From Candidatus Poribacteria bacterium (GTDB lineage: Bacteria; Poribacteria; WGA-4E; PCPOR2b), in the NCBI GenBank assembly GCA_965208675.1, contig OZ242351.1, forward strand, positions 1,152,001 to 1,216,000: a stretch of DNA of 64,000 bases, in the 5' to 3' direction. Each line of letters starts with the position of its first letter. Within the stretch, counting starts at the first letter, position 1. This document shows positions 25,608 through 43,626 of the stretch, one piece after another. Made by a program: the position numbers and the translations under genes. Below the pieces are notes generated by a model, which saw only the letters and a list, made by a program, of their open reading frames with translations, was not told the DNA's origin and ran no database searches.

Positions 25608-28472
25608 ATGCGTCGCACCTACATGAGGGAATGGCCGAAAATGAAATTTTGGTCAAAGCTATGCTATGTCGCGTTTCTCGCCTTGTTAATTAACAGCACT
25701 TACAAGATAAGCTTCGGAGAACCGACAAAATTCTACATTGCGAACGGGTTAATTCACATTCTCCTTGGGGTTGCCTTGATTATCCCGTTCGTCCTCTACG
25801 CGTGCAGGCATTTCACCGCTTTGACTGCTGTTGGAAAAAGCGCGGTGGTCTTGCTTGGGCTAGGTGCAGTTTCGGGCGGTTTCTTGATGAAAGTCGGCGC
25901 GACGACACCCTATCGTTGGCTGCTCACACTCCACATTATCACCGTGACGCTCGGCACGATTCTGTTTATCGGCGACCTGTTCTACCGCTCAAGACTGCAC
26001 GCCGCTACGATTCAATTCAAGAAGGCAGCGAACACGGGAGTAGTTGTCCTCGGAATCGTCTTGCTTTTTCCATTCGCAGCGAGAATTGTCCAGCATTACC
26101 TGCCAAACCCGGACTACCTCGTTCAGAATCCGCTGTCCCCGCCAACCAGCATGTATGAGGAAGGGGGCGGAACTGACGGGCCATTTTTCCCCGGCTCCGT
26201 CGAAACATTCTCCGGCGATATTATCCCGACTGACTTCTTCCTAACATCTGACTCCTGCGCCGAGAGCGGGTGTCACCCCGACATCTATGAGCAGTGGAAC
26301 GAGTCGGCGCACCATTTTGCCTCCTTCAACAATCAGTGGTACCGAAAATCAATCATGTACATGCAAGATATGAACGGGATTCAGCCGTCCAAATGGTGCG
26401 GCGGTTGTCACGATCCCGCCATCCTGCTCAACGGCGTGATGGATTTTCCAATCCGTAAAAATTTGCACACCCCCGCCGCCCAAGCCGGACTCTCGTGTAC
26501 GGCATGCCATTCGATGGAGAAGGTGAAAGATACCATGGGCAACAATGGGTACATTATCAAATACCCGCCGCTGCATGACATCGCCGCAAGTGATAATCCA
26601 ATCGTCCGGAAACTCCATAATTACCTCATCCGCCTCGACCCGGAACCGCACAAAAAGAGCTTTCTCAAACCTTTCCATCGTGAAAACACCGCGGAATTTT
26701 GCTCGACGTGCCACAAAGTACACCTTGATGAACCCGTCAACAATTTCCGCTGGTTCCGCGGATTTAATGACTACGACCAATGGCAATCCAGCGGCGTTTC
26801 CCACCAGGGCGCGCTGTCGTTTTACTATCCTGAGAAAGCGAAGAAATGCACAGACTGCCACATGCCGCTTGTTGCCTCAAATGACGCTGGAAATATCAAC
26901 GGTAAAGTCCACAATCACCGGTTCCCGGGCGCAAATACGGCGTTGCCTTTAGTAAACAAACATGACGAGCAGCTCAAGTTAGTAACCGAATTTCTGCAAG
27001 ATAATCAAGTAACCGTCGATATCTTTGCGTTGAGTCCTGCGACGCCGATTCAAATTTACGGCGACCCTGGCGCCGCTGGCGGCCCCTCCGTCTTCAGTAT
27101 GACGGGGGAAGAGAGTGACAAAGGCCGAGCGGTTGGCACAGTGACAGACATTGCGAAGATTATTGCCCCAATTGACCAATCTAACGCAGCAGTCAATCGC
27201 GGCGATTCGGTTCGCGTTGATGTCGTCGTACGAACTAGAGGCGTAGGACACCGGTTCCCCGCCGGGACGATTGATGCTTTCGATGTCTGGGTGGAGTTGA
27301 AAGCCACCGACGAAAACGGCAAGATTCTCTTCTGGAGCGGGATGATTGAGGCAGAAGACGGAAACGGCCCTGTTGATGAAAGCGCGCATTTCTACCGCGC
27401 TTACATGTTGGATGAGCACGGAAACCTCATCAATAAGCGCAATGCGTGGGCAACTCGGACGGTTCTATACGCTCGCACCATTCCACCCGGCGCCGCTGAC
27501 ACGGTTCACTACAGGATATCCATTCCCGATGACTGTGGTGACAAGATTTACCTGCACGCAAAGCTAAATTATCGCAAATTCAACTGGTGGCATACCCAAT
27601 GGGCGTATGCAGGGGTTCGCGATCCTGACGACACCGATTATAAATTTGGTAAAGGGTACGATGATGGGCGCTGGGTATTTACGGGAGACACTTCGGATGT
27701 CGCTGGCAAAATCAAAGCCATTCCCAACCTACCAATCGTCGTGATGGCGGAGGACACAGCGTCGCTGAACGTAATTGACGCCGATGCCGCCCCGCCAGAA
27801 CCACAAATCATCGCTGGAGAAAACGACCGTGAGCGATGGAACGACTACGGCATCGGTCTCTTCCTCCAAGGTGATCTCAAAGGCGCCGAGGCAGTGTTCA
27901 AGAAAGTCACTGAGATTGATTCGGAATACCTAGACGGCTGGGTAAACATCGCGCGATGCCGCATTCGGGAGGGGAACATGAGTGGCGCAAACGAAGTGCT
28001 CAATAAGGCTTTTGAAATTCAGCAGAATTTGCCGCCTGAAAATCCGCATCGCGCAAAAGTGCATTACTTTTATGCATTAGTCAAAAAGGCATACGGCGAT
28101 TACGATGACGCAATCCATCAATTGCGGTTGGCGGCCGCGCAATTTCCGCGCGACAGAAAAGTGCGCAATGAAATTGGCCGTCTGCTGTACCTCCAACGCA
28201 AATATGAGGATGCACTAGTTGAATTTCAGAAAACCGTGGAGGTTAATCCAGAGGATTTGGATGCCCACTATAACATGATGCTCTGCTATCGCGCACTCAA
28301 GAATCAAGTTATGGCGGCAAAAGAAGAAAAGTTGTACCGGCGATTCAAGGAGGATGAAGCCGTCGAATCCATTACGGGACCCGTGCGCCGCACAAATCCT
28401 TTCGCCAATATAGAACGTCAACAGATTCACGAACACACATCCGCATGGAAAAGCGGCGCCGCCGGTTACTAA
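25608..28472 (+). CDS. Membrane-anchored multiheme cytochrome c with C-terminal TPR repeats
   Basis: N-terminal TM helices; CGGCH, CTACH, CSTCH, CTDCH and a non-canonical CAESGCH; TPR-like helices after about residue 740; the start may be 25641. Confidence 0.85.
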   Translation: MRRTYMREWPKMKFWSKLCYVAFLALLINSTYKISFGEPTKFYIANGLIHILLGVALIIPFVLYACRHFTALTAVGKSAVVLLGLGAVSGGFLMKVGATTPYRWLLTLHIITVTLGTILFIGDLFYRSRLHAATIQFKKAANTGVVVLGIVLLFPFAARIVQHYLPNPDYLVQNPLSPPTSMYEEGGGTDGPFFPGSVETFSGDIIPTDFFLTSDSCAESGCHPDIYEQWNESAHHFASFNNQWYRKSIMYMQDMNGIQPSKWCGGCHDPAILLNGVMDFPIRKNLHTPAAQAGLSCTACHSMEKVKDTMGNNGYIIKYPPLHDIAASDNPIVRKLHNYLIRLDPEPHKKSFLKPFHRENTAEFCSTCHKVHLDEPVNNFRWFRGFNDYDQWQSSGVSHQGALSFYYPEKAKKCTDCHMPLVASNDAGNINGKVHNHRFPGANTALPLVNKHDEQLKLVTEFLQDNQVTVDIFALSPATPIQIYGDPGAAGGPSVFSMTGEESDKGRAVGTVTDIAKIIAPIDQSNAAVNRGDSVRVDVVVRTRGVGHRFPAGTIDAFDVWVELKATDENGKILFWSGMIEAEDGNGPVDESAHFYRAYMLDEHGNLINKRNAWATRTVLYARTIPPGAADTVHYRISIPDDCGDKIYLHAKLNYRKFNWWHTQWAYAGVRDPDDTDYKFGKGYDDGRWVFTGDTSDVAGKIKAIPNLPIVVMAEDTASLNVIDADAAPPEPQIIAGENDRERWNDYGIGLFLQGDLKGAEAVFKKVTEIDSEYLDGWVNIARCRIREGNMSGANEVLNKAFEIQQNLPPENPHRAKVHYFYALVKKAYGDYDDAIHQLRLAAAQFPRDRKVRNEIGRLLYLQRKYEDALVEFQKTVEVNPEDLDAHYNMMLCYRALKNQVMAAKEEKLYRRFKEDEAVESITGPVRRTNPFANIERQQIHEHTSAWKSGAAGY

Positions 28473-36917: not shown

Positions 36918-37005
36918 AATTATTCATTTCTCTTACACGAATCCGTCAATCCATTGAGTTCTGCGACCGAGCGAATCGGTGAGTCAGCGGTATTGAAACT
37001 GCCGC

Positions 37006-37203
37006 TCAGCGATTGTCATAATAGCTGCGGGATTTGAGCTTTCGCTGTCGTTTCAATTCGAGCCGCCGCCGTTTCTCGCTCGGTTTTTCATAGAAGCTGC
37101 GCTTCTTGATTTCTGTGACAATACCAGCCTTGCCACACATTTTTTTAAATCGGGCGAGGGCTCTGTCAAATGTTTCGTCTGGTCCAACCGTAACTTGAAT
37201 CAT
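37006..37203 (-). CDS. rpsU: 30S ribosomal protein S21
   Basis: FDRALARFKK...GI..E.KKR.FYEKPSEKRR. Confidence 0.95.
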   Translation of the reverse strand: MIQVTVGPDETFDRALARFKKMCGKAGIVTEIKKRSFYEKPSEKRRRLELKRQRKLKSRSYYDNR

Positions 37204-37348
37204 ATTTTTGTTCTACCCTTCCTTCGATACTCAGCCTTCAGTACCTAGGCGCAACGGCACAGCGAACTGTTTTATCCAATAGCCGCGCTGTCAGACGACC
37301 TAGCACGAAATTCCAAGCTTAAATTTTGTAGTCTACATTCAATATCAT

Positions 37349-37377
37349 ATTATATCAAATCGTCTCTATTTTCTCAA
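37349..37377 (-). promoter_or_regulatory. Sigma70 promoter for rpsU
   Basis: TTGAGA-N17-TATAAT with extended -10 TG. Confidence 0.7.
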
Positions 37378-37467
37378 CACAAAAATTCGGTATCGAAACG
37401 AATTTCAAATCTGATCCAAGAGCGCCTTAGCGTCAAGACTCACGCAACGACGTGCTGTACCACAGCT

Positions 37468-38472
37468 TTGGCGCGGGTTGAATCGAAAATGACCGTACAG
37501 CCGCAAGCGCACATAGATTTCAGTGATATCCAACGTATCCTGATTCTCCGTATGGGTCCGCTCGGCGAAACCATCCTGACGACGCCCGTAATTCGGGCGC
37601 TGCGCAACCGTTTCCCAAACGCGCGCATCGCTTATATGGTCGCACCGGAGCGCGAGGATCTCGTCTCTGCGAATCCGTTTCTTGACGAGGTCATGACGTA
37701 CGATATAAGCGTACCAAAGCTGGTTTATGGTATAATGAAACGGTCGTTTCAGATGGCGGTCGTCCTGCAACCCACATTCCGTCTGGTGCTGCACACCTTT
37801 CTCGCGCGTATCCCGTTTCGAATCGGGTTCGAGACCAACTGTTGCAGCGGCAGATTGCTGCATGTCGCCGTGCCCAATAACACCGCTCAGCACGAAACCA
37901 GCCGCTATCTTGATGTAGTCCGCGGCATCGGTATCCAGCCGGATTGCGGCGAACCGGAGATGTTCGTGGATGACCGTGCGCAGCGATGGGCGGACGATTT
38001 ACTTGTGAATCTCGATTTTGATACCAATCGCCCGCTTGTTGGGCTTAATCCCGGCACAGGCTCCGTTTCGCGTCGTTGGCAAAAAGAGCGGTTTGCCAAG
38101 ATTGGAAATCTGCTCCATCGGGAACACAATGCACAAATCATAATTACCGGGGGACCTCGTGAAGGTTCACTGCCGTACGAATTGGCGGATATGATGTGCT
38201 GTTCACCGATTGTTCTCACGGGTGCGACGCCCATGCAACTGGGTGCGGTGATTCAGCGGTGCCATTTATTCATCAGCAACGACACGGGACCGATGCACAT
38301 GAGTACCGCAGTGAAAACACCGACGATTGCGCTGTTCGGGTCGTCAAATCCGTCGCGGTGGGGACCGTTTTGGCATGGGCATACAATAATCGCCCGAAAC
38401 AGTATGAACGAAATTGCCGTCAATGACGTGCTGTTAGCAGCGGAAAAACACCTGTCTATAGCCGATCGCTAA
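37468..38472 (+). CDS. Glycosyltransferase family 9 (LPS heptosyltransferase-like)
   Basis: ILILRMGPLGET and SNDTGPMH...TIALFG. Confidence 0.92.
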   Translation: MARVESKMTVQPQAHIDFSDIQRILILRMGPLGETILTTPVIRALRNRFPNARIAYMVAPEREDLVSANPFLDEVMTYDISVPKLVYGIMKRSFQMAVVLQPTFRLVLHTFLARIPFRIGFETNCCSGRLLHVAVPNNTAQHETSRYLDVVRGIGIQPDCGEPEMFVDDRAQRWADDLLVNLDFDTNRPLVGLNPGTGSVSRRWQKERFAKIGNLLHREHNAQIIITGGPREGSLPYELADMMCCSPIVLTGATPMQLGAVIQRCHLFISNDTGPMHMSTAVKTPTIALFGSSNPSRWGPFWHGHTIIARNSMNEIAVNDVLLAAEKHLSIADR

Positions 38473-38575
38473 GAACACAAGCAACACAATAGCCATTTAC
38501 ATGCATATTTACACACATTCTGATACCCCCCTGATAAGGGATCAACTGAGTGGATAGCGAAGGCGATAGTTTTGG

Positions 38576-39990
38576 GGGTTGACACCTCTTTTCGATCGGA
38601 CTGAAAGAATTTGTAGGTTGGGTTAAGCGGAGTAAATGAGAGACGTGAAAAATGTCGAAAGGATATCGGTATTTGAATTCGTTTGGTATTTTTTTAGATG
38701 TAGCGAACCCAACGCTTTTGGATATTGCGGGGCGTTTGGTTTATTGGAAACCGTTCGCAAATACGAAAAGCGTTGGGTTACGCTCCCCACATCGGGTCTT
38801 GGACGTCGTTAAGCTCCCAGAGCGAAAAGAAAAATTGTACATCATTCCGTGAAATTCGCTCAACCCAACCTACACGAAGCTTGACTTGTGGGTAATAGTA
38901 AGCTGATAAGGGGGCTAGAGCGGGTTGACACCTCTTTTCGATCGGACTGAAAGAATTTGTAGGTTGGGTTAAGCGGAGTAAATGAGAGACGTGAAAAATG
39001 TCGAAAGGATATCGGTATTTGAATTCGTTTGGTATTTTTTAGATGTAGCGAACCCAACGCTTTTGGATATTGCGGGGCGTTTGGTTTATTGGAAACCGTT
39101 CGTAAATACGAAAAGCGTTGGGTTACGCTCCCCGCATCGGGTCTTGCACGTCGTTAAGCTCCCAGAGCGAAACGAAAAATTGTACATCATTCCGTGAAAT
39201 TCGCTCAACCCAACCTACACGAAGCTTGACTTGTGGGTAACGGTAAGCTGATAAGGGGGCTAGAGCGGGTTGACACCTCTTTTTGATCGGATTGAAAGAA
39301 TTTGTAGGTTGGGTTAAGCGGAGTAAATGAGAGACGTGAAAAATGTCGAAAGGATATCGGTATTTGAATTCGTTTGGTATTTTTTTAGATGTAGCGAACC
39401 CAACGCTTTTGGATATTGCGGGGCGTTTGGTTTATTGGAAACCGTTCGTAAATACGAAAAGCGTTGGGTTACGCTCCCCGCATCGGGTCTTGCACGTCGT
39501 TAAGCTCCCAGAGCGAAACGAAAAATTGTACATCATTCCGTGAAATTCGCTCAACCCAACCTACACGAAGCTTGACTTGTGGGTAATAGTAAGCTGATAA
39601 GGGGGCTAGAGCGGGTTGACACCTCTTTTTGATCGGATTGAAAGAATTTGTAGGTTGGGTTAAGCGGAGTAAATGAGAGACGTGAAAAATGTCGAAAGGA
39701 TATCGGTATTTGAATTCGTTTGGTATTTTTTTAGATGTAGCGAACCCAACGCTTTTGGATATTGCGGGGCGTTTGGTTTATTGGAAACCGTTCGTAAATA
39801 CGAAAAGCGTTGGGTTACGCTCCCCGCATCGGGTCTTGCACGTCGTTAAGCTCCCAGAGCGAAACGAAAAATTGTACATCATTCCGTGAAATTCGCTCAA
39901 CCCAACCTACACGAAGCTTGACTTGTGGGTAACGGTAAGCTGATAAGGGGGCTAGAGCGGGTTGACACCTCTTTTTGATCGGACTGAAAG
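38576..39990. repeat. Tandem array of 4 full 345-346-bp units plus a partial unit, each carrying a GTAG-type REP doublet (REPIN-like)
   Basis: Units start with GGGTTGACACCTCTTTT at 38576, 38922, 39267, 39613 and 39959. Each has an outer IR TGTAGGTTGGGTTAAGCG/CGCTCAACCCAACCTACA and an inner IR AACCCAACGCTTTT/AAAAGCGTTGGGTT. Confidence 0.97.
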
Positions 39991-40034
39991 TAATGTGTAC
40001 ATTTTAGTTGCAGTGACTATAAACAGGGGATGTC

Positions 40035-41501
40035 ATGCGCACCGCCATCCAAAACCAACCCGAGCAGATTATCGAAAGCCGCCTTATTGAAATTCGGCGG
40101 CGAATGCACTTGAACCTATTCTTGAGCCGTCTCGCGCATTTTGGGTTCTGGGGGCTTCTCCTTGCCGGAATCCTGCTCATCCTCAATCGACTTATCCCGC
40201 TGCCAATTCCCGTCAGTCTCGCTGCGCCGCTTCCCCTCGCCATCGGATTCGCCGCCGCGCTGTGCCTTTCCCTGTTGCGCAAATCAAATCTTTTCGCAGT
40301 TGCGCGCACTGTGGACACCCGTTTAAATCTAAAGGAACGCCTCAGTACCGCCTGTGAAGCCATCCAACGCGGAAAGCCAGACGATGACTTTGTCCGCTTG
40401 CAAATTAAAGATGCGGGTCATGTTGCACGGGCGATCGTCCCGGGGGTGTCCTTTCCTTACACCGTCCCGTCAACGCTCAAGTGGATCCCAATCGCCCTCT
40501 TGCTCATCGCCTCCGCTTTTGTGATTCCCCAAATGTATGAACTGCCACCTCCGTTGTCCGCAGCCGAGCGTGCAGCCATAGATCATGCGGCAGAAACGCT
40601 CGAATCAGAGCAAAACGTGGTTCCTGATACTGACCTCGCCAGAAAAATACGGGATACCATAGGTAAATTACGCCATAGTGACATTGATGCTAATCGGTCG
40701 CAAGCGGAGTTAAGCGCACTGCGTGATAAAATCCGAGCCAAAAAAAGCCAAGTTGAAAGCGGAACAGATAGTATTGTAAAGGCGATTTCTGAAACGGACG
40801 AACTGTCCAAACATTTCAAAGGCCGCACAGCGAGCGACATCGCCTCGGATTTAGAAAAACGGGCGGCACAGATGAATGGACTTACGCCCGGGCAACGGGC
40901 GGAGTTGGAGGCGTTGCTGAAGAAGATTGCCCAAAGTCTCGGTGATAACCCCGCTATGGAAAATCTGACGAATCAGTTGGCAGAGCTTCAGACAGAAGCG
41001 GTGAGTGCCGAAATGCTTCAGCGAATCGCGCGGGCGCTCCTTCAAAGTACAGATGAAATCGCCCAGTTGGATAAGCTATTGCAACAAATAAGGACGAATC
41101 GCCGAAACATTGCGTTAGCCGGCATCGAGTTGGATCGAAAAACACCGGGCGCTGCGGGCAGCGGAAGCGGATCCGGTGAAGCATCGGATGCAGCGGATTC
41201 ACAAGACACGATGAGTGGGTCAAAGCCCCAGCCGCTCAATCCCCCATCGGACAATTCCTTACCTGACCTTGAACTCACAGCTCCCCCATCCGACTCGCAG
41301 GCGTTCACACAGGTCTACGTTGACGAAGACCCCACCGGTGAAGGCGAGCCTACCTACATGCCCTACCGCGAAGTCTATCTCCACGCCCAACAAGCCTACG
41401 CCCAAGCAATAGAGAGAGATGAAATTCCCGTAAAATACCGGGAACAAGTCAAGGCTTATTTAGAAGCCATCGCCAACCTAGAAAACAAAGATTCGCAATA
41501 A
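40035..41501 (+). CDS. Membrane-anchored coiled-coil hypothetical protein
   Basis: N-terminal TMs, LKERLSTA, long helical region, G/S-rich linker and C-terminal IPVKYREQVKAY. Confidence 0.8.
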   Translation: MRTAIQNQPEQIIESRLIEIRRRMHLNLFLSRLAHFGFWGLLLAGILLILNRLIPLPIPVSLAAPLPLAIGFAAALCLSLLRKSNLFAVARTVDTRLNLKERLSTACEAIQRGKPDDDFVRLQIKDAGHVARAIVPGVSFPYTVPSTLKWIPIALLLIASAFVIPQMYELPPPLSAAERAAIDHAAETLESEQNVVPDTDLARKIRDTIGKLRHSDIDANRSQAELSALRDKIRAKKSQVESGTDSIVKAISETDELSKHFKGRTASDIASDLEKRAAQMNGLTPGQRAELEALLKKIAQSLGDNPAMENLTNQLAELQTEAVSAEMLQRIARALLQSTDEIAQLDKLLQQIRTNRRNIALAGIELDRKTPGAAGSGSGSGEASDAADSQDTMSGSKPQPLNPPSDNSLPDLELTAPPSDSQAFTQVYVDEDPTGEGEPTYMPYREVYLHAQQAYAQAIERDEIPVKYREQVKAYLEAIANLENKDSQ

Positions 41502-41507
41502 ACTCTT

Positions 41508-41959
41508 GTAGGATCGGTAGGAGCGATCTCCGAATCGAGACCCTCATTTAAAACCGAGTTTTTTCTTCAAAACTCGGTTTTTTAAACGCAGCTTTTGTAG
41601 GTTGGGTAGAGCGGATATGCTGATACATACATAGTACTTTTTAAGCAGTTCAGCTCTTGTAGGTTGGGTTAAGCGGTGATGACGAAAGAGAGTGTATGCG
41701 CTGTATGCGTGTCGAGGTGAGAGCGCATTTGAAATTTTGAAAAGATATAGCGAACCCAACGATCAACTGAGCGAATAGATCAAGCGACCGAATAGGGAGT
41801 GCGATAGAACTCTTTGGCGGTAGTCTTCAGCATTAATAGCCTCCCGGCCTCCCCGAAATTGTGTTTCGCTCCACCCCTACAAATCTTGATCGCTGTCAAT
41901 GCACCAACCTCATCCTCAAAATAAATCCGTTTAATCATCTCCGCTCTACCCAACCTACA
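41508..41959. repeat. Mosaic of REP-like/palindromic elements including nested GTAG-REPs
   Basis: Perfect 20-bp IR at 41596-41615/41940-41959 encloses a second REP at 41658-41760; also an AAACCGAGTTTT/AAAACTCGGTTT palindrome and GTAGGAGCGATCTCCGAATCG. Confidence 0.8.
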
Positions 41960-42057
41960 GAAACGCCGCGCACACGAATTTGCGCAAATTTTGAATAATA
42001 TGGTACAATTCCGAACAATTCATTTCAATCCATCTTTTAATCGTGTGAGGATTTTAC

Positions 42058-43626
42058 GTGAACAATAACCTAAACGAAATCGAACGGCGGCTGTGGAGCG
42101 CCGCCGATGTACTCCGAGCCAATTCGCGGCTGCGGCCGTCTGAATACTCAACGCCGGTCCTCGGTCGAATCTTCCTCCGCTACGCCGACCACAAGTTTAC
42201 GCAGACAGAATCCGAAATCAACCGTGAACCGACCGCGGGCAGGCGTAGACGAGCCGACAAGACCGAATTTCAGGCGCGCGGCGCATTCTACCTCCCTGAG
42301 ACTGCGCGATTCAACCATCTCCTGAACCTGCCCGAAAGCGAAAACATCGGACAAGCTATCAACAACGCCATGAAGGCGATTGAGGAGGAAAACAGACAGG
42401 TTGACGGTGTGCTGCCCAAAACCTACAACCGGCTCGAAAAGACCACGCTTCTTGAACTGCTCCGCATCATGGAACGTATTCCGATGGATATTGAGGGCGA
42501 CGCATTCGGTAAAGTCTACGAATATTTCCTCGGCAACTTCGCCATGACCGAAGGCGCGCGCGGCGGCGAGTTTTTCACCCCTACCTCGCTCGTAAAGCTA
42601 ATCGTCGAAATCATCGAACCGTACCAAGGACGCATCCTCGACCCCGCCTGCGGCTCCGGCGGCATGTTTGTCCAGAGCGCTGATTTCGTGCAGCGGCACC
42701 GCGAAAACGGAAACGGGCAAATCAGCATTCACGGAATCGAACGCGTCGCCGAGACTATCCGCCTCTGCAGGATGAACCTCGCTGTCCACGGACTCGAAGG
42801 CGACATAAAGCAGGCGAATAGCTACTACGAAGACGCGCACCGCGCCTTCGAAAAGTTCGACTTCGTCATGGCGAATCCCCCTTTCAACGTCGATCGCGTC
42901 GACAGAGAACGCATCAAAGACGACCCGCGTTTCCCGTTCGGCATGCCCCGCGTGGACAACGCCAACTATCTCTGGATTCAACTCTTCTTCAGCACGCTTA
43001 ACACCTTTGGGCGTGCCGGCTTCGTCATGGCGAACTCCGCCGCCGACGCCCGCGCATCGGAACTCGAAATCCGCCGGCAGATTATCGAATCCCGCGCCGT
43101 TGATGTCATGGTCAGCATCGGGTCCAACTTCTTCTACACTGTTGCATTGCCCTGTACCCTCTGGTTCTTCGACAAGTCAAAAGGGCACGGCGATAGACGG
43201 GATTCTGTGTTGTTCATTGATGCCCGCCACATCTATCATCAAGTCAGTCGCTCGCATCGCGAGTTCACGCCCCAACAACTGGAGTTTCTCGCCAATATCG
43301 TCCGGCTCCATCGCGGCAAACCGCCCGAAAATCGCCACGACAGTGCGGAATTGATGGGGTCGAAATTCCCTGATGGTACGTATGCCGATGTGCCCGGTCT
43401 CTGCAAAGTCGCGTCAATTGCGGAAATCGAAGCGCAAGGCTGGAGCCTCAACCCCGGCCGTTACGTCGGCGTCGCCGATCGAGAGGCGGATGCCTTCGAC
43501 TTCGCCGAACGGCTGGGCGAACTCAACGAGGAACTGGAAATCCTGAACGCTGAAGCGCATCAGTTAGAGGAACGCATCGGGGAGAATGTAGCCATGATTT
43601 TGGAGGAGTCAGTGAAAATCGTCTGA
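42058..43626 (+). CDS. hsdM: Type I restriction-modification methyltransferase subunit
   Basis: [24 protein letters not shown] and NPPF. Confidence 0.96.

Follow-up and report, generated by a model that had tools for sequence, protein, structure and literature searches.

A GTAG-type REP with a long loop of near-constant length in a Candidatus Poribacteria genome, probably an orphaned RAYT-copied family

The subject of this analysis is a family of short DNA repeats in a stretch of 64,000 nt from a Candidatus Poribacteria bacterium (contig OZ242351.1; the whole stretch is called the window below), which combine the GTAG tag and hairpin stem of repetitive extragenic palindromes (REPs) with about 70 nt of additional DNA in the hairpin loop. 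A reading made from the letters alone (the sequence-only reading) had described three arms with conserved ends, at 38612-38713 (+), 38772-38874 (-) and 41658-41760 (+), and all three were found exactly so. Each arm opens with the head TGTAGGTTGGGTTrAGCG, continues with an insert of 74-75 nt, by the boundaries of that reading, and closes with the tail CG(T)AACCCAAC. With at most one mismatch allowed, the head 11-mer occurs 12 times in the window against 0.5 expected, a count reached in 0 of 100 shuffles; a lone head with one mismatch (GTAGGTTGGGA) lies at 27722-27732 (-), distant from the other copies. The features that make up the locus are given here, with insert clusters numbered according to a clustering described further on.

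38540..38569, + strand: copy of a 30-nt GATC..GATAG mini-element, directly upstream of the tandem array (read by eye)
38576..39960: tandem array of four 345/346-bp units, with one REP doublet per unit (family D1)
38612..38713, + strand: long-loop GTAG REP, left arm of doublet 1, insert cluster 25 (arm 1 of the sequence-only reading)
38714..38771: doublet spacer, 58 nt, which with the flanking half-stems forms the central inverted repeat
38772..38874, - strand: long-loop GTAG REP, right arm of doublet 1, insert cluster 3 (arm 2 of that reading)
38958..39219, arms + and -: doublet copy 2
39303..39565: doublet copy 3
39649..39911: doublet copy 4
41596..41657, + strand: truncated long REP arm, junction type GGGTAGAGCGG, ending after 62 nt where the next arm starts
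41658..41760, + strand: long-loop GTAG REP, insert cluster 29 (arm 3 of that reading)
41761..41807, + strand: GATAG-type mini-element sequences adjoining arm 3 (read by eye)
41859..41959, - strand: long REP arm, head intact, 3' half-stem degenerate (AAACACAA)

A single 263-nt doublet (38612-38874) is made up of arms 1 and 2, joined tail to tail around a 58-nt middle and bounded by terminal inverted repeats of 18 nt; the central inverted repeat (38706-38729 and 38756-38779, 24 nt) is 83% complementary. Together with 82-83 nt of flank the doublet makes up the 345/346-bp unit that is repeated four times in tandem across 38576-39960, and the unit copies are 73-100% identical when compared without gaps, the low value being due to a 1-nt shift. 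Further downstream, the arm at 41859..41959 and the truncated arm that starts at 41596 form a 364-nt inverted pair. The sequence-only reading had missed the truncated arm at 41596-41657, the arm at 41859-41959 and the fourfold array of doublets.

The genome to which the window belongs (G000) is assembled as a single 4.89-Mb contig and is 96.4% complete. The head GTAGGTTGGGT occurs in it 270 times, compared with 2.3 expected, and the downstream AACCCAAC lies at a distance of 90-99 nt from 154 of these 270 heads, at 20-29 nt from 9 and at 50-59 nt from 6. Complete units numbered 157, with lengths of 102 nt (72 units), 101 nt (37), 103 nt (23), 100 nt (14), 104 nt (8), 97 nt (2) and 91 nt (1). 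Extraction across the genome hence bears out the near-constant insert length that had been proposed from three arms, with 154 of 157 units falling at 100-104 nt; these 154 were used for the analyses of inserts, and the 3 others were left out. All 157 units have a 3' ACCCAAC able to pair with GTTGGGT, and GTAG directly 5' of the stem, the units having been selected by a head 11-mer that contains GTAG. As many as 153 of the 154 units lie wholly outside open reading frames (ORFs) of at least 150 aa, a position shared by 17% of random 102-mers. Units on the + and - strands are balanced genome-wide and the copies are dispersed, as judged by their density in 500-kb bins; an orientation bias relative to replication was rejected on the basis of this balance, with the extremes of GC skew being poorly defined.

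Units commonly stand in pairs. We found 32 tail-to-tail pairs with GTAG facing outward, of which 19 have a spacer of 58-59 nt and 3 a spacer of 22-30 nt, the rest having other lengths up to 188 nt; several of the longer spacers are enlarged by the small GATC..GATAG element. The two arms of a doublet have different loops, and these are matched in many ways (loops of cluster 29, for instance, with those of 7 other clusters); complementarity between doublet arms is limited to the 18-nt ends.

The nature of the unit is most readily seen from the short copies. At 9 of the 270 heads in G000 the partner lies 20-29 nt away, leaving interiors of 12-16 nt, and the core of such copies reads GTAG, GTTGGGT, a junction such as AGAGC-CGTA-GCGAA, and ACCCAAC, with a total of 31-33 nt; two short copies form a 95-nt doublet at genome positions 2691052-2691146. 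Long units depart from short ones solely by ~70 nt inserted between ..GCGG and NAGCGAA.., precisely at the apex of the hairpin, and in the long units the conserved stem is limited to the outer 7-8 bp. In other copies of the same genome this apex is occupied by one or two GATAG mini-elements, a 30-nt GATC..GATAG sequence with at least 126 copies in the genome by regular expression, found also within REP loops and doublet spacers. The assignment to the GTAG REPs made by the sequence-only reading is supported by this GTAG-tagged core, by the occurrence of a 31-33-nt small-loop form in G000 and in other phyla, and by the location of the extra DNA in the apical loop. In a relative (locus L049), two doublets flank a gene for a REP-associated tyrosine transposase (RAYT), at 1235-1461 and 2044-2202; they have the right arm in common, while the left arm is of the long-loop form in one and short in the other. 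Here the gain or loss of the ~70 nt can be observed directly.

The inserts had been described as unrelated. Direct pairwise alignment of the three window inserts gave global scores of -16, -1 and -12, at or below the shuffled null, and across the whole set pairwise identity peaks at 0.50-0.55, compared with 0.486 +/- 0.035 for shuffles. Average linkage at 60% identity sorted the inserts into 31 clusters. Between clusters, same-strand alignments scored a mean of -5.6 against -11.2 for shuffles, with 15.4% above the 99th percentile of the null, whereas reverse-complement comparisons behaved like the null (mean -10.6, 0.4% above that percentile). Ungapped identity in register was 0.31-0.34 along nearly the whole insert, as opposed to 0.25 at other offsets, and a weak cluster-weighted consensus extends through the entire loop. 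At a threshold for which 1.2 false links are expected among 11,781 insert pairs, the inserts form a network of 974 links with 151 of the 154 in one component, while the reverse-complement control gave 0 links; the three outliers are one unit with a GATAG element in its insert and a pair from one small cluster. The three window inserts lie 3-5 links apart in this network. Because the inserts always share one orientation, are similar in register and fall, with three exceptions, into one network, we conclude that they are diverged copies of one ancestral loop, close to saturation, and not captured cargo; the description as unrelated inserts does not stand. Divergence between clusters may amount to about 1.8 substitutions per site, an estimate derived from the in-register identity.

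Two further ideas on the loops were examined and rejected. For a tRNA-derived origin resembling that of short interspersed nuclear elements, ARAGORN reported 0 tRNAs by default in the 157 units with their flanks, and 1 at a 90% threshold. For strand-specific hypermutation of an exposed loop, transitions dominate without strong asymmetry (G>A 0.53 and C>T 0.40; A>G 0.36 and T>C 0.35).

The sequence-only reading noted no RAYT gene in the window and proposed to look for the cognate enzyme; that search succeeded in relatives and failed in G000. In 40 related genomes we examined 30 RAYT loci (NF047646, cut-off 80 bits) and, separately, 30 loci of IS200-like Y1 genes. REP heads with at most one mismatch stand on both sides of the RAYT gene at 7 of the 30 loci (L047-L052 and L056), and not at the other 23. 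Within the class of RAYTs scoring 195-202 bits, all six loci (L047-L052, from G001, G023, G012, G018, G011 and G003, of which G001 and G003 belong to the same genus as G000) are flanked on both sides by the head or its GTAGGTCGGGT variant. The RAYT of G001, with 180 aa, carries the HUH (DHLHT) and tyrosine (YIHYNP) motifs and matches the TnpA-REP protein of E. coli (PDB 4ER8) with an E value of 3.9e-40. IS200-like Y1 genes were rejected as the partner, being flanked on both sides by long-loop REPs at 0 of 30 loci.

G000 itself has four Y1_Tnp matches, none near a GTAGGTTGGGT head. A different REP family flanks its best RAYT (NF047646, 132 bits), and a third family flanks a second RAYT-like gene; none of its three RAYT-type genes is flanked by GTAGGTTGGGT, and two adjoin other REP families. 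When the G001 RAYT was searched against G000, the best match was 27% identical and proved to be the RAYT of another REP family, and because of this the matching RAYT is regarded as absent from the G000 assembly; a search in G000 for synteny with the G001 RAYT locus returned repeat matches only. The RAYT-type genes L002/L064 (genome 3522656-3523069) and L078 (genome 190448-190873) are each accompanied by a REP family of their own, one reading CTGTGGGAG... and the other GTAGTAGCGCAAT..ATTGCGC. A different small GTAG REP type (GTAGGAGCGATCTCCGAATCGAG) occurs in the window at 41517-41539 and elsewhere in the genome too, and for the bin with this REP the summed contig depth is very high in four runs, of which three are sponge-metagenome runs. 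Besides the orphan system, at least three distinct REP systems are thus present in G000.

No insert pair more than 5 kb apart is at least 98% identical (the maximum is 95.7%), and 19 of the 154 inserts have a dispersed relative of at least 90% identity, while identities of at least 98% are confined to copies within 5 kb. The nearest dispersed relative of the window array is 90-94% identical to it. The long-loop REPs of G000 are, in our view, an orphaned and ageing population in which near-identical copies exist only as local tandem duplicates. At the orthologous gene junction in three genomes of the same genus (G001-G003) the gap is 0-30 nt and the block 38488-40019 is absent. Since the junction is this short there, the window block of ~1.5 kb was gained in the G000 lineage.

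The ORF beside the array, at 40035-41501 (488 aa), matches no Pfam family at E <=0.001 and has 75-90% DNA identity in three genomes of the same genus. Directly after it, at 41550-41585, lies a terminator-like hairpin followed by a T run, seen by eye and not listed by a promoter and terminator scan; over 38400-42100 that scan gave 5 promoter-like sites compared with 3.6 expected, and nothing notable.

The head is enriched in three of the four families of the order that were searched, and the long form (head, 78-94 nt, AACCCAAC) is present in 30 of 41 genomes including G000, whereas a reversed control pattern matched in none. Without G000 the counts by family are 23 of 24 genomes in f1, 2 of 6 in f2, 4 of 5 in f3 and 0 of 5 in f4. 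All 86 units of G038, from f3, measure 97-105 nt, with a mode of 102. With 15 units sampled from each genome, in-register identity to the G000 inserts was 0.295 for G038 and 0.286 for G037, compared with 0.24-0.27 at other offsets, and 29 (G038) and 12 (G037) of 2,310 pairs each exceeded the 99.9th percentile, compared with 1-2 in controls. These similarities suggest that the long loop either is older than the split of the families or has been exchanged between them.

Beyond the order, a 19-nt head pattern was scanned in one genome per species (596 Gb), giving at least 112 matching stretches where simple arithmetic predicts ~17 by chance. Among the matches listed, several copies per genome are seen in cyanobacteria, Syntrophobacteraceae, Sulfuricella, Hydrogenophilales, Oleiphilus and Chloroflexia, and many records are from Candidatus Poribacteria. 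Unit lengths, read from the titled rows L120-L199 among the matches listed, fall into the following classes.

31-32 nt: cyanobacteria, Syntrophobacteraceae, Pseudoalteromonas and one Thermodesulfobacteriota record
35-37 nt: Sulfuricella, Hydrogenophilales and one Chloroflexia record
60-67 nt: Oleiphilus, Oceanospirillum and Chloroflexota
100 nt: Desulfosarcina and Desulfocapsa
95-105 nt: 31 of 31 measurable Poribacteria copies

By these classes the short REP is the widespread form, and the ~70-nt loop marks genomes of the Poribacteria type. Four records of Desulfobacterales/Thermodesulfobacteriota (L128, L129, L130 and L196) have the REP core in a 100-nt unit with an inner GTTGGGT in the loop, and the 100-nt Desulfobacterales loop shows no clear homology to the poribacterial one.

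Taken together, we consider it likely that the arms are a non-autonomous, long-loop variant of the GTAG REP that was copied by a RAYT, whose loops descend from one ancestor and which is now orphaned in G000. In this view the core begins with GTAG, after which two half-stems, GTTGGGT and ACCCAAC, enclose a short mismatched junction (..AGCGG / NAGCGAA); in its short form it is a hairpin of 31-33 nt, and in this lineage about 70 nt placed at the hairpin apex give the 102-nt unit. The units, which mostly occur as tail-to-tail pairs with outward-facing GTAG, doublets of the type known as REP doublets forming hairpins (REPINs) or bacterial interspersed mosaic elements (BIMEs), would be copied on single-stranded DNA by the RAYT (TnpA-REP), as the known REP/RAYT systems suggest. 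By the same analogy the enzyme would read GTAG, the stem and the mismatched junction and be indifferent to the sequence of the loop. The loops themselves, as the insert comparisons show, are copies of one ancestral loop that have diverged almost to saturation while indels were kept out.

Several points weigh against this proposal. The link to a RAYT consists of flanking position at 7 of 30 loci, and for the RAYTs of 168-181 bits in G032, G038 and G006 (L053-L055) such flanking is not seen within 1.5 kb; G032 and G038 nevertheless have 122 and 86 long units. Within the genus, the two genomes that lack the matching RAYT class have 162 (G000) and 195 (G002) long units, compared with 58 (G001) and 55 (G003) in the two that have it, and a higher number where the class is lacking is unexpected if copying depends on that gene. 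The gain of the window block after the split from G002 implies either a recent loss of the RAYT or another route of mobility. In addition, the hairpin model gives no cause for a fixed loop length, and the constancy itself could partly represent fast, reversible homopolymer slippage together with few true indels, the neutral expectation being rough.

Whether length is under selection is a question on which the data can be brought to bear. Within clusters, gap events amount to 0.31-0.5 per pair already at a divergence of 0.05-0.17, and the mean squared length difference, 0.31-0.76 in that range, stays at 0.5-0.8 out to a divergence of 0.8, with 0.5-0.7 for divergences of 0.25-0.8; the variance of the whole set is 0.93. 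A free random walk at the rate seen at low divergence would give a several-fold greater spread of length between clusters, although this extrapolation is rough. The modal unit length is 102 nt both in G000 and in G038, which belongs to another family, while doublet spacers vary by clade (58-59 nt in G000, 12-41 nt in G038 and G037) without a change in the arm mode. The loop length does look to be under stabilising constraint because length differences stay flat with divergence, the mode is common to two families and the spacers vary between clades, and an extended stem is not the cause: DNA folding of 31 cluster representatives gave a mean z of -0.3 relative to shuffles, with no extra stability, and in a covariation analysis on six diagonals pairing within units equalled pairing between units beyond the outer 7-8 bp. 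The alternative, that the constant length is unselected and reflects a single founder with a low rate of indels, can draw on the register kept along the whole insert, which implies that few indels were ever fixed, and on the scatter of +/-1 nt, which comes partly from slippage in T runs. It is difficult to reconcile with gap events that are frequent among close relatives followed by flat length differences at higher divergence, and with an identical mode in two families whose loops are near saturation while the adjoining spacers have changed from 12 to 59 nt, and we regard it as doubtful.

The loops also carry an internal pattern. An in-register A/T-rich signal recurs at ~9 nt (period-9 power 11-16, compared with 0.5-0.7 in rotated controls; reached by 0 of 200 controls), and inserts are self-similar at offsets of 18 nt (0.28) and 36-37 nt (0.31) relative to 0.25, a periodicity of 18 and 36-37 nt that is weak in other families. 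The self-similarity looks like four degenerate 18-mers, perhaps a remnant of how the loop originated or an array for phased binding. The loop may have arisen by nested insertion, twice in this lineage, of modules of ~35 nt at the REP apex, with the composite then being amplified, an idea compatible with copying by a RAYT. Apart from the offsets themselves, 30-nt GATAG mini-elements, singly or in twos, do occupy the apex of other G000 copies, the unit lengths seen in other phyla among the matches listed (31-32, 60-67 and 100 nt) correspond to steps of ~35 nt, and the paralogous doublets beside the L049 RAYT differ by the presence or absence of ~70 nt. At the same time, the inserts are unlike the present GATAG consensus (0.30-0.31, shuffled up to 0.35), the periodicity is weak outside G000, and the 100-nt Desulfobacterales loops are not clearly homologous, so that nested insertion can be offered as a tentative account only. 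Descent of the loop from the GATAG mini-element in particular was rejected, with the best sliding identity being 0.30-0.31 within a shuffled range up to 0.35 and no likeness at the level of the family; a resemblance noticed by eye in a single cluster was not borne out.

Our best guess is that loop length is set by a spacing requirement between the half-sites or by a phased array of protein-binding sites. Taken further, the loop might be a measured spacer with nearly free sequence, its length being sensed by the RAYT or by some DNA-binding protein of the host. It would comprise some four 18-nt modules in phase, with an A/T-rich patch at intervals of ~9 nt, and these REPs would be nucleoprotein scaffolds and not simple hairpins; this is speculative, and we think it rather unlikely. 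If it were true, the unit sizes of ~32, 66 and 100-102 nt across phyla would represent modular steps of ~35 nt. A length ruler is not part of the REP/RAYT mechanisms as they are described in the relevant passages of PMC3733652 and PMC8266576.

The sequence-only reading had also raised guide-like small RNAs. A family of these, or of structured small RNAs, with constant ends and a targeting region that varies, would suit the conserved ends, variable middle, fixed length and extragenic position of the units. This is very unlikely: no Rfam match was obtained at E <=1 in 37000-43000, the insert folds no better than shuffled sequence and shows no covariation or excess of pairing beyond the 7-8-bp outer stem, the units lie equally on both strands and as inverted doublets, and candidate targets were not found elsewhere in the genome.

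We give almost no credence to ruler-type capture or to an attC-like recombination site, by which each REP would have acquired a fixed-size piece of unrelated DNA in the manner of a cassette or spacer. In favour of it, direct alignment of the three window inserts fails, most insert pairs lie near the shuffled identity of 0.49, and GTTGGGT and ACCCAAC fit the attC core consensus. Against it, orientation and register are common to all inserts, 151 of 154 belong to a single network for which the reverse-complement control has 0 links, no donor was found in the genome, in phages or in plasmids, the copies are dispersed and not arranged as arrays of gene cassettes, the best match to the integron integrase TIGR02249 reaches 41 bits against a cut-off of 265, and the half-sites have the opposite polarity, GTTGGGT coming first within the arm, whereas attC sites run R''-L''...L'-R' with RYYYAAC first and GTTRRRY last. 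The search for a donor returned 28 of 611 genomic matches outside a REP context, all of them matches to the GATAG mini-element or beside degenerate REPs, none in phages, and a single chance-level plasmid match (34 nt, E 5e-3); accordingly, the proposed length-constrained capture or replacement of cargo found no source.

For annotation, the 100-nt units and 263-nt doublets should be masked as one repeat family and not be recorded as cassettes, guides or cargo. More generally, this would be a large REP population that has outlived its transposase and grows only by tandem duplication, which bears on models of RAYT dependence. Should the length of the loop indeed be read, sizes of 32, ~66 and 102 nt would make the poribacterial elements a natural series for finding out what the RAYT or a host protein measures on a REP.

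A literature search combining Poribacteria with 'repetitive extragenic palindromic' returned one unrelated review, and in the passages of the cited REP literature a ~70-nt loop of conserved length within a REP is not described. In the part of PMC3733652 that treats their size, REPs are described as 20-40 bp long with loops that are mostly very short. The closest known system is the GTAG REP and its REPtron (E. coli group 2, PDB 4ER8, PMC3479197; PMC8266576; PMC3733652; Nunvar 2010, PMC2817692), with which, as far as the cited passages extend, the present elements share the 5' GTAG, the imperfect palindrome and the mismatched junction, as well as high copy number, extragenic position, inverted pairs and a TnpA-REP homologue flanked by the repeats, which here is found in relatives. 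Loop sequence appears unimportant here, as those passages report for the loop of E. coli. The differences are that the dominant form is 102 nt with a ~70-nt loop kept in length and not in sequence, and that the matching RAYT is absent from G000.

With REPINs (Bertels and Rainey 2011, PMC3116915) our doublets have in common two inverted REPs with a spacer, spread through intergenic DNA, and persistence over long evolutionary spans; the RAYT of REPIN systems is described as single-copy. In contrast, the arms of the doublets studied here carry different loops, because of which a doublet cannot fold as one long perfect hairpin, and the copies are old, no dispersed insert pair being at least 98% identical.

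The insertion sequences IS1397 and ISKpn1 insert into REP loops; here, too, the apex is where extra DNA sits, and in other units of G000 GATAG elements occupy that position. The ~70-nt loop differs in having no recognisable ends, no copies outside REPs and no likeness to GATAG.

Conservation of length with freedom of sequence has already been noted, in the portion of PMC3733652 concerned, for the spacers between REP partners, and the 58-59-nt doublet spacers found here behave alike. In the long-loop elements it is the hairpin loop within one REP that shows this pattern, and it extends across families of an order. REPs are commonly regarded as 20-40-bp hairpins whose information resides in stem, tag and bulge. 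In the present elements this REP core tolerates a loop of ~70 nt and has retained it over a very long time, with only the loop length being preserved, in at least three families of one order.

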